Below are positions 2,854 through 6,111 of a stretch of DNA of 64,000 nt, piece by piece. The notes below the pieces were generated by a model. The model had not been told where the DNA came from and ran no database searches. It saw only the letters and a program-made list of their open reading frames with translations. The stretch's first letter is position 1. Each line of letters starts with the position of its first letter. Source of the DNA: Escherichia coli (GTDB lineage: Bacteria > Pseudomonadota > Gammaproteobacteria > Enterobacterales > Enterobacteriaceae); the NCBI RefSeq assembly GCF_030013595.1, contig NZ_CP122768.1; one strand, written 5' to 3'. The translations under genes were made by a program, and so were the position numbers.

Positions 2854-3705
2854 TTAACCCGCGTAAGCTGCCAGCATTTCCTGCGCCGCCAGTTTACCCA
2901 ACGCATTCGCTGCGAAAGGACTGTCGCCGGTGAGAACTTTACGGTCCTTATGTACTCGCCCGGTGATGTCGTCATTAATGATGTTCATGCCCATTTTCTT
3001 CAGCTCTTCGCCAAAGTACCAGGTGAGATGACCCGGCATATAGCCTATCTCTGGTGTTTGTTTGTCTGCGGCGTCTGGGAATGCGCAAATGGAATAACCA
3101 TTCAGTGGGTTATCGCCGTGGCGAAGTGCCAGAAAAGCCGCCGGGCCGTGGCAAAGGGAGATAACAAAACGGTCATTTTTGATTGCCCACTGTAAAGCGG
3201 CAGCTACGTCCTGGCTTTCAGGTAAACCAATAAGTGCGCCATGACCACCAGGAACAAAGATTGCTGCATATTCGCTGTCAGCGTTGAGGCTGGCGACAAC
3301 ATCCGCGAGTTTCTTCGGATTGCGGAACAAAGATTTATGCTGCTCAAAGAATGGCATTACTTTTTCATCTTTGTGCGGCATAGCCCAGTATTCAAACTTG
3401 GTCATCAGACCGGAAATGGTCGCCACTTCGAATTCGAAACCTGCAGCGTGGAGATGATACAACGGCAGCAATGTTTCAATCGGATGGTTACCGGTCGAGA
3501 ACAGTTTTCCGTTATCGGTCGGCAAATAACGTTCGTCCGCGGCGATCACCAGAATTTTATGTTTACCGCGATACGGTTTTGGATAGTCCACGCCATCAAG
3601 ATCAGAGACAGGACTGGTATATTGGCTAAGCGAATATTCTGAAGGGAAGAATGCATTATCTTCAGCAATATCGACCTGCGGATTTTTACTTGTTTGAACA
3701 GTCAT
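2854..3705 (-). CDS. hchA: Hsp31 chaperone / glyoxalase III (DJ-1/PfpI family)
   Basis: 283-aa ORF recognised as HchA. Confidence 0.92.
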   Translation of the reverse strand: MTVQTSKNPQVDIAEDNAFFPSEYSLSQYTSPVSDLDGVDYPKPYRGKHKILVIAADERYLPTDNGKLFSTGNHPIETLLPLYHLHAAGFEFEVATISGLMTKFEYWAMPHKDEKVMPFFEQHKSLFRNPKKLADVVASLNADSEYAAIFVPGGHGALIGLPESQDVAAALQWAIKNDRFVISLCHGPAAFLALRHGDNPLNGYSICAFPDAADKQTPEIGYMPGHLTWYFGEELKKMGMNIINDDITGRVHKDRKVLTGDSPFAANALGKLAAQEMLAAYAG

Positions 3706-4295
3706 AGTGTATTCCTTATTGTTGCTTAGTTAGGGTAGTCACTATATTTGCGACTGAGCTGGTCGCTATTTTTAACCAGGCTGGAAAATTGAGTCAATAT
3801 ATCGAAAGCGGTAGTCGTGGGTGTAAGTATGTAATGATGATGCTGCACTGGTGTTGAATATTATTCACGCCAAATTTTCCTTATTGAGCTACGTCGTCGC
3901 AAGTGGCCTCAATGATTTTAGACCATTATCAGAGGTACGGGGCGGCGGGGAGAGATTTAGTGCTGTGGAATATCGTGGTGCTGATGAATATTTATATCCC
4001 GGATTGGCAGAGAAAAAGCTTTTTTCATGCACTATTTTTGCAAATATTTCTATATGGGGGGCGGTTTTGTTGCAGATTAATTCATAAAGAAATGCATTTG
4101 GGTGTTGGCTGGAAGAGACGCTGGTAGATTTTATTGAGCCAGGAGGGGCGGGGTAATGTGCTGTATCGATATGCTTTGGCAAATGCGTGTGCCGCAGATG
4201 GAGATGAAATGCCAATAAAAAAGCCTGAGTTCGATGAGGGACGAACTCAGGCTATTGTTAAGTTTTACAGTAACACGCCGCGGCGCGTTGGCTGA

Positions 4296-5483
4296 TTAGA
4301 ACTGGTAGACTAAGCCCACAGCTACGATATCATCGGTAGCGATGCCGTTTTCTTTGTAGAAGTCGTCGTCGTTGTCCAGCAGGTTGATTTTGTAATCAAC
4401 GTAGGTGGACATGTTTTTGTTGAAGTAGTAGGTCATACCAATATCAACATATTTAACCAGATCTTTGTTGGTGTAATGATGATTGCCCTGGCTGTCGAAG
4501 TTATCACTATTTACACCGCCTAAATCCTTACCTTTAGATTGCAGGTAAGCGATGGACGGGCGCAGACCGAAGTCGAACTGATACTGAGCAACCACTTCAA
4601 AGTTTTGGGTTTTGTTAGCGATCGCATCAGCATCACCGTAACCAGTCATGTTACGGGTTTCAGCATACATAGCTGCTAAGTAAACGTTATTAGCGTCGTA
4701 TTTAGCACCAACGGTCCATGCTTCTGCTGTTTCACCGCCAGCAGTTGCATCGAAGCGATCTCCATAACGAGTGTTATGAGTACCTTTGTGAACCTGATTG
4801 TCGGTACGGTCAGAGTTAGAGTAAGCAGCGCCCAGACTTAAACCAAAGTCAAAGTCATAGGAAGTGGACATACCGAAGCCGTCGCCGTTCTCTTTAGCTA
4901 ACTTACGGCCATTACCGTTACCAGAACCTTCCTGACCGAATAATCCATCATCTTCATTATTACCCTGATATTGCAGAGCAAAGTTCAGGCCATCGACCTG
5001 GCCAAAGAAGCCATTGTTACGGTAGGTTGCAACACCATTAGCACGACCGTTCATGAAGTTGTCGGCACCAGCATAGGTATCGCCACCAAATTCTGGCAGC
5101 ATATCGGTCCATGCTTCGATGTCATATACGACACCGTAGTTACGACCATAGTCGAAAGTACCATTCTGACCAAAGCCTAAACCTGCAAATGCCAGACGCG
5201 TTGCGGTATTACCTTTGTCGCTTTCAGGACCGTTTGCGCCAATGTTAAATTCCCACTGACCATAACCAGTGAATTGGTCAGCGATCTGAGTTTCACCTTT
5301 GAAACCGATACGGGCATATGACATGTCGCCATCGCTGCCAGCATCATCAGAGAAGTAGTGCAGGCCCGCTACTTTTCCGTACAAATCCAGTTTATTACCA
5401 TCTTTATTATAGACTTCAGCCGCATTTGCTGCGCCAGCAACTAATAACGCCGGGACCAGCATTGCCAGAACTTTTCTTTTCAT
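4296..5483 (-). CDS. yedS: OmpC/OmpF-family outer membrane porin, apparently intact
   Basis: ORF 4296..5513; signal peptide from ATG 5483 ([21 protein letters not shown]); porin motifs; C-terminal aromatic residue. Confidence 0.8.
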
Positions 5484-6111
5484 TATGTATTCCCTTGTGA
5501 TTATAATCTTCATGAATATATCAATAAGTGCTGTTATCCAAAAAAAAGCACATTTGGATACTATTCTATGAAGTTCATTTTATTTTAAAGATTACATGTA
5601 ACAAATGTATTTAAAAGATTTCAAAATGTTTCCAATCTGTTTAATATAATTCAGAATTATGAATTCTGAATATAAATATTCACGAATATTATGAATGCAT
5701 ATCAATATGTTATGAGTTGAGCGGAAACATAGGGAGTATCAATGATTGTTGTGCTAAACGGCTGGTGTGATCTCGCGCACATTAATGAAGGCATAAAAAA
5801 AGCCGGCATCATGCCGGCCCAAAAAATATAAACAAGACGATAAAAGGCTAATAACGGAAGCATCATGACACAGAATAATAAAAAGGGATAATTGTAATCA
5901 GTGCTAATATATTGATTGAATGAATTAATAAAGCCGATATCAAAGATAAATAAAATCGCTCAAAACGATTTTTCCTGTATTCACTGCCATTGCGCAAAAA
6001 TTATCTATTTGTTCAAAAAATGATTGAGTCTTGACTGGCTCATCCAATGTGGAAAAATGTGACTTTTATCACATAATAGTACTAAGTCTGAATTTTCCGG
6101 GTTATCTCAAA

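Follow-up and report, generated by a model that had tools for sequence, protein, structure and literature searches.

MicF is a regulator of YedS, and intact yedS is already known to be common in natural Escherichia coli and has been published previously. A functional YedS was reportedly found by Warner et al. in 2013 (AAC) in a carbapenem-resistant clinical isolate, where it is said to have affected carbapenem resistance. For E. coli K-12, the gene order yedS'-rseX-drpB has been described (PMC7648144). Some sources name yedS "ompS1" or "outer membrane protein S1" (PMC2731931 and the protein record P0009), names that hint at orthology to Salmonella OmpS1. The OmpS1 porin of Salmonella is silenced by H-NS and StpA and derepressed by LeuO (regulation summarised in PMC4264507). 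RseX "and surrounding areas" have been reported to be derepressed without H-NS (PMC8313858).

We analysed a 64,000-nucleotide stretch of E. coli DNA (contig NZ_CP122768.1 of assembly GCF_030013595.1), hereafter called the window, which carries a porin gene on its minus strand. The best overall explanation of this gene, in which we place high confidence, is an intact yedS allele encoding a classical general-diffusion porin. The features of the locus are as follows.

4222–4253, minus strand: intrinsic terminator of the porin gene, a 12-bp stem followed by a T-run, 43 nt past the stop codon (terminator scan).
4296–5483, minus strand: intact yedS-type porin CDS, 395 aa plus stop (open reading frame, Pfam Porin_1 match, exact public protein, and collinearity with the K-12 pseudogene but without its lesions).
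5421–5483, minus strand: codons 1–21, Sec signal peptide with predicted cleavage after ANA (by homology).
5484–5794, minus strand: AT-rich stretch comprising the 5' UTR and the presumed promoter of the porin gene (GC content 27–33%).
5491–5496, minus strand: Shine-Dalgarno-like AAGGGA, 7 nt upstream of the ATG at 5483 (read from the sequence).
5766–5781, no strand assigned: CRP-type site TGTGAtctcgcGCACA, between the rseX terminator and the porin gene (pattern match).
5795–5884, minus strand: rseX sRNA gene, directly upstream of the porin gene, with its own terminator at 5820–5800 (Rfam RF01401).

In the ORF list and its translation, the reading frame runs uninterrupted from the ATG at 5483 to the end of the stop codon at 4296 (1188 nt including the stop) and encodes a protein of 395 aa, MKRKVLAML...VGLVYQF. 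A preliminary description of this DNA had listed a full 395-aa porin ORF with a signal peptide, and its coordinates, length and intactness were all correct, the strand being minus. Alignment to the intact alleles revealed no overlooked frameshift or stop codon in the window gene. When called mechanically, the ORF is 30 nt longer and begins at an in-frame ATG at 5513 (405 aa). No Shine-Dalgarno sequence precedes this ATG, and we prefer 5483 as the start because AAGGGA is found at 5491–5496. The 395-aa form is also the one used by RefSeq for the porin gene in other genomes. The RNA fold of the porin terminator has an energy of −32.6 kcal/mol (z = −6.4 relative to shuffled sequences). The 590-bp spacer between hchA and the porin gene (3706–4295) shows a strong skew of G over C (+0.27 to +0.34) and is about 93–97% conserved across E. 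coli but alignable only in part in other Escherichia species. This spacer contains a 108-aa ORF that has no Pfam match and appears in RefSeq genomes as inconsistent "hypothetical proteins".

The window protein matches the Pfam family Porin_1 (PF00267) over its whole length (E = 2e-142, residues 27–395 aligned to profile positions 1–337 of 337), and the ORF is therefore not a chance one. In the NCBIfam model of the porin OmpC subfamily it scored 542 bits (cutoff 484), and it scored below the cutoffs of the NCBIfam OmpF and PhoE equivalog models. The term "OmpC-family" used in the preliminary description is thus right at the family level, although the gene is a paralog of ompC. Among proteins of solved structure, the best relatives by sequence were OmpK37 (E = 1.7e-145), followed by Omp36, OmpK36 and OmpC, with E-values ranging from 1e-145 to 1e-124. 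Because the crystal structures of mature OmpC and OmpK36 align from query residue 22 onwards, residues 1–21 are predicted to form a porin-type signal peptide, the removal of which would leave a mature N-terminus of the AE(V/I)YNK type. The signal peptide is identical in all alleles at the yedS locus and shares 18 of its 21 residues with that of OmpC.

An AlphaFold model of the window protein, built from a 70-sequence alignment (pLDDT 86, pTM 0.84), contains 17 strand segments; the first and last of these make up one strand, giving a 16-stranded barrel in which long loops alternate with short turns. Comparison of the model with Foldseek returned OmpK37, OmpK36 and OmpC with TM scores of 0.93–0.96. 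Alignment with OmpC located the PEFGG motif in loop L3 (residues 117–146) and showed the acidic residues of L3 and the C-terminal YQF to be conserved. Also conserved are the lysine and arginine residues aligned to the basic pore cluster of OmpC, namely K16, R37, R74 and R124 in what we take to be the numbering of the 2J1N structure. The protein ends in VGLVYQF, with the terminal F395 nearly invariant across 70 diverse homologs. The pore-lining residues and the fold are those of OmpC/OmpF-type porins and, given 60–70% identity to solved trimeric porins, the protein would be expected to form a homotrimer with diffusion-channel activity.

Comparison with annotated E. coli chromosomes gave the gene order msrP-hiuH-hprR-hprS-hchA, porin, drpB(yedR)-yedJ-dcm-vsr-yedA, with hchA at 2854–3705 on the minus strand and drpB, formerly yedR, from about 6122 on the plus strand. 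The neighbours are as previously described (hchA and yedR), with the addition of rseX, which also lies in between and had gone unmentioned; its match to Rfam RF01401 scored 97.7 bits (gathering score 50, E = 1.5e-13). Over a conserved 10-kb flank, identity is 95–99% to 5,368 E. coli chromosomes and 99.9% to two pig isolates, which marks the window itself as E. coli. In a K-12-type chromosome (O16:H48, NZ_CP043207), the yedS locus is annotated as "frameshifted; internal stop". In this chromosome our alignment identified two lesions, codon 162 changed from CAG to TAG and one base pair deleted at nt 672, which bears out the earlier statement that K-12 yedS is disrupted; the window gene has neither. 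These two lesions are the only frame-breaking differences between the window gene and the K-12 yedS fragments, with which it is collinear (89% nucleotide identity over the whole gene). The window gene is an intact allele of yedS, a chromosomal ompC paralog.

The RefSeq label "ompC: porin OmpC" would suggest instead that the gene is the housekeeping osmoporin OmpC itself, an identification with which the NCBIfam "porin OmpC" subfamily score, exceeding its cutoff, and the PGAP calls agree. However, the true ompC, whose neighbourhood we located in a comparator genome by a sequence search for micF, lies elsewhere, with micF and beside rcsD and apbE. There are typically about three matching places per genome, and the neighbours of the window gene (hchA on one side, rseX-drpB on the other) are those of the yedS position. 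With hchA and rseX as its flanks, neither micF nor rcsD nearby, and 67% amino acid identity between its product and OmpC of strain 503025, we rejected the identification of the window gene as ompC and regard it as extremely improbable. PGAP calls the yedS locus "ompC: porin OmpC" in every genome examined (L001–L015 and L026), which results in two apparent ompC genes; such a RefSeq label on the yedS locus can confound automated porin-loss screens in carbapenem-resistance genomics.

Species-representative genomes were scanned with the rseX core as an anchor, and six loci were found, in Escherichia and Citrobacter amalonaticus only; the scan yielded no Salmonella locus. E. albertii, E. whittamii and two unnamed Escherichia clades have an uninterrupted porin gene and show the arrangement hchA-porin-rseX-drpB-yedJ-dcm over as much of the locus as each sequence covers. 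A record labelled E. coli E69 has the hchA-porin-rseX part, likewise with an uninterrupted porin. C. amalonaticus has a more distant porin and the porin-rseX-drpB-yedJ-dcm side of the locus, with no hchA match on the DNA compared. Because the arrangement is found across Escherichia and a porin occupies the site in C. amalonaticus, we consider the yedS locus to be ancestral and not recently acquired. The positional homolog in C. amalonaticus (L019, 2357–3454) is labelled "phosphoporin PhoE" by NCBI, and its named relatives include many OmpC, OmpD (about 74% identity), NmpC or Lc porins. The type of porin at the conserved site thus differs between genera. The search seeded with this homolog returned OmpC-, OmpD- and NmpC-type names and no protein called OmpS1. 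The best Salmonella match (P0309) is located beside IS elements in an unrelated context and is not syntenic with the yedS locus.

These comparisons also bear on the idea that the window gene is a recently acquired foreign porin, prophage-borne like NmpC or Lc, which landed at the yedS site. Such an origin could account for a CDS that is much more divergent between strains than its flanks, for the divergent 371-aa allele at the same site in other strains, and for the likeness of the Citrobacter positional homolog to OmpD/NmpC/Lc-type porins. It is opposed by the gene order kept from hchA to dcm in E. albertii, E. whittamii and the two other Escherichia clades, with the side from the porin to dcm kept in C. 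amalonaticus as well, and by the absence of phage or IS genes flanking the window porin; we rejected it and give it next to no credence. The 5' UTR and the signal-peptide codons are moreover common to all alleles, which argues that alleles were exchanged by homologous recombination within the resident gene.

Identities of the coding sequence and of its flanks run in opposite directions. The window allele is 93.9% identical at the nucleotide level to those of E. whittamii and sp. E1V33 and 88.8% identical to that of K-12, whereas the flanking genes show 86–90% identity to E. whittamii and sp. E1V33 and 97.5–98% to K-12. It follows that the allele lineages are older than the species splits or else have crossed between species. 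This cross-species sharing of alleles is the sole mildly unexpected result of the analysis and is typical of surface-antigen genes. Across strains, the flanks, 5' UTR and signal-peptide codons are 93–100% identical, and the rest of the CDS 68–100%; the site holds several deeply divergent coding alleles (62–100% amino acid identity) within conserved flanks. We tentatively propose, as a reading that falls somewhat short of an even chance, that the yedS site is a long-lived hypervariable porin locus under balancing or diversifying selection. The divergent alleles within conserved flanks, the cross-species allele lineage and the repeated inactivation of the gene fit this proposal. If it is true, the locus would carry the signature of an arms race with phage, colicin, antibody or antibiotic entry, fought over a porin that pays off in some hosts and is a burden in others.

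We estimated dN/dS between the window gene and nine intact alleles, of which four come from Escherichia species or clades other than E. coli. The ratio was 0.02–0.05 in the barrel, L3 and the turns, with the exception of the near-identical allele L004 (0.14, from only three substitutions), and 0.08–0.45 in the external loops. Variable sites accounted for 58% of external-loop positions compared with 21% of strand and turn positions (odds ratio 5, p = 2e-11), and insertions relative to the window protein were confined to loops L4 and L6. Loop L3 is nearly invariant among 123 close relatives; among seven more divergent alleles, 8 of its 30 sites vary. The low barrel ratio, which extends to the alleles from the four other Escherichia species or clades, shows that the barrel evolved under strong purifying selection and that selection on the YedS protein has been long-term. 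Judged from these sequence comparisons, the pattern supports a YedS that has been functional over evolutionary time, with its surface under diversifying pressure. The preliminary description had called porins antigenically variable, and the concentration of allelic differences in the predicted surface loops lends this indirect support.

The exact 395-aa protein is present in 410 contigs in public databases, named "porin OmpC" or "Porin OmpN", and full-length 395-aa relatives number in the hundreds. Of 5,426 complete E. coli genomes, 111 carry the window allele at ≥99% nucleotide identity, with humans, pigs, cattle, poultry and wildlife among their sources; a spot check of one found its porin CDS annotated as intact. 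A yedS-type gene is present in about 2,000 complete genomes, and in the rest the site is occupied by porin alleles of greater divergence. Of 14 yedS-type genomes sampled at even spacing, seven had intact genes and seven had pseudogenes, the latter with at least five independent lesions (the stop and 1-bp deletion of K-12, a 1-bp deletion in O157, a different 1-bp deletion, a second nonsense codon, and a deletion of 11 bp). The 11-bp deletion occurs in the two nearest relatives of the window, in a gene otherwise identical to that of the window. The closest of these, the pig isolate HCP5S3_I2 (L001, NZ_CM149870.1, locus 4591–5767), is 99.9% identical over the flanks and has the deletion (GGCAATCATCA) at nt 1045 of the gene, which, barring an assembly error, looks like the trace of a very recent loss. 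In a 4.83-Mb record labelled "DH5alpha" (L003, NZ_CM135829.1, locus 4592–5707), an intact, divergent 371-aa porin and not the K-12 pseudogene occupies the yedS site; NZ_CM135829.1 is probably not a true DH5alpha/K-12 genome.

Since the nearest relatives of the window are broken and half of the sampled genomes carry pseudogenes, yedS is dispensable, and the independent losses in K-12 and many other lineages suggest that it is dispensable and sometimes costly. The gene may even be unused in the lineage of the window, whose nearest relatives carry the same allele in destroyed form. Taken to its end, this reasoning would make the intact ORF a silent relic, never expressed in this lineage and a pseudogene-in-waiting, for which one can cite the five or more independent lesions, the 11-bp deletion in an otherwise identical gene, and the AT-rich upstream region within a segment reported to be silenced by H-NS. 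The barrel dN/dS of 0.02–0.05, which holds in comparisons with many intact alleles from E. coli and from four other Escherichia species or clades, speaks against a relic, as does the preservation of the pore residues, signal peptide, Shine-Dalgarno sequence and terminator. The exact protein is also widespread, and a functional YedS was reportedly present in a clinical isolate (the 2013 work of Warner and colleagues). We consider the silent relic unlikely and retain the reading of an intact yedS allele that encodes a general-diffusion porin.

The 550 bp upstream of the porin gene have a GC content of 27–33%, and region 5484–5794 is 93–100% conserved in all strains, whichever coding allele follows. 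A promoter scan returned nine promoter-like sites, with 6.7 ± 3.0 expected, and gave no basis for naming a yedS promoter; the promoter-like hexamers at 5670–5643 and 5604–5577 are no more frequent than in shuffled sequence. In the CRP-type site downstream of the rseX terminator, all 13 aligned strains have the half-site GCACA and 12 of them have TGTGA; the window keeps both. The K-12 counterpart of this site, TGTGAtcaggcGCACA, appears in a 2026 preprint (PMC12871828) as a new site bound by CRP in vitro with high affinity (Kd 4.9 nM) and is there assigned to yedS. The CRP-type pattern has three matches in the window compared with 0.32 expected by chance. A second site of this type, the perfect palindrome TGTGActtttaTCACA at 6058–6073, is positioned about 50 nt upstream of the drpB start (6122). 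On the plus strand, positions 5887–5892 read GATAAT in the window and its nearest relative, as opposed to a perfect TATAAT in 11 other aligned strains; this hexamer overlaps the 5' edge of the oppositely oriented rseX and may act as a −10 element on the drpB side.

Predicted pairing of MicF or RseX with the translation-initiation region of yedS gave nothing significant relative to dinucleotide shuffles, in a duplex-energy test that the published RseX-ompC pair also failed. Because the upstream region is AT-rich, the segment is reportedly silenced by H-NS, and a CRP site is present, we suggest that yedS is probably a conditionally expressed, "quiescent" porin gene with weak expression under standard conditions, in analogy with the quiescent porins OmpS1/OmpS2, OmpN and OmpK37.

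Based on these features, we propose that YedS would be exported by means of its 21-residue signal peptide and would fold into a 16-stranded beta-barrel, with loop L3 narrowing the pore as in the structural model, to reside in the outer membrane presumably as a trimer. The CRP site could couple yedS to the carbon status of the cell. Once expressed, YedS may let small hydrophilic solutes, among them beta-lactams and carbapenems, enter the cell by another route, and may present a variable surface target for antibodies and possibly for phages.

K-12 is thus not representative, since many natural strains have retained a third OmpC-like porin. According to the report attributed to Warner et al. (2013), intact yedS can offer carbapenem entry when OmpC and OmpF are lost, and the state of yedS is worth recording when permeability-based resistance is predicted. 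The loop variation, the cross-species allele lineages and the recurrent loss may be of interest for the study of surface-antigen evolution and phage receptors. The practical value of the finding is small, and it contains nothing mechanistically new.

Of the related systems, Salmonella OmpS1 may be paralleled by yedS in its silencing, for which the AT-rich upstream region of yedS, situated in a segment reported to be H-NS-repressed, is consistent but indirect evidence; control of yedS by LeuO or OmpR would be proposed only by this analogy. OmpK37 of Klebsiella pneumoniae (PDB 6v78), a quiescent porin of the OmpN/OmpS2 type, is the best match of solved structure (TM 0.93, at the E-value given above) and, like YedS, is a minor porin alongside major OmpC- and OmpF-type porins. 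It differs in coming from another genus, in its identity of about 64%, and in gaps in loops L4, L5 and L7. OmpC shares with the window protein the fold, a near-identical signal peptide, the PEFGG motif of L3, the pore residues and the C-terminal YQF. At 67% identity, the window protein is the longer of the two (395 aa vs 363 aa), with extended L4, L5 and L7, and its gene occupies a different locus, without micF or rcsD and with an AT-rich upstream region unlike that of a major constitutive porin. Closest of all is K-12 yedS (b1964–b1966), which is the same gene at the same position in the order hchA, porin, rseX, drpB. It belongs to a different allele lineage (88.8% nucleotide identity, compared with 97.5–98% for the flanks), and whereas the K-12 copy is broken, that of the window is whole.
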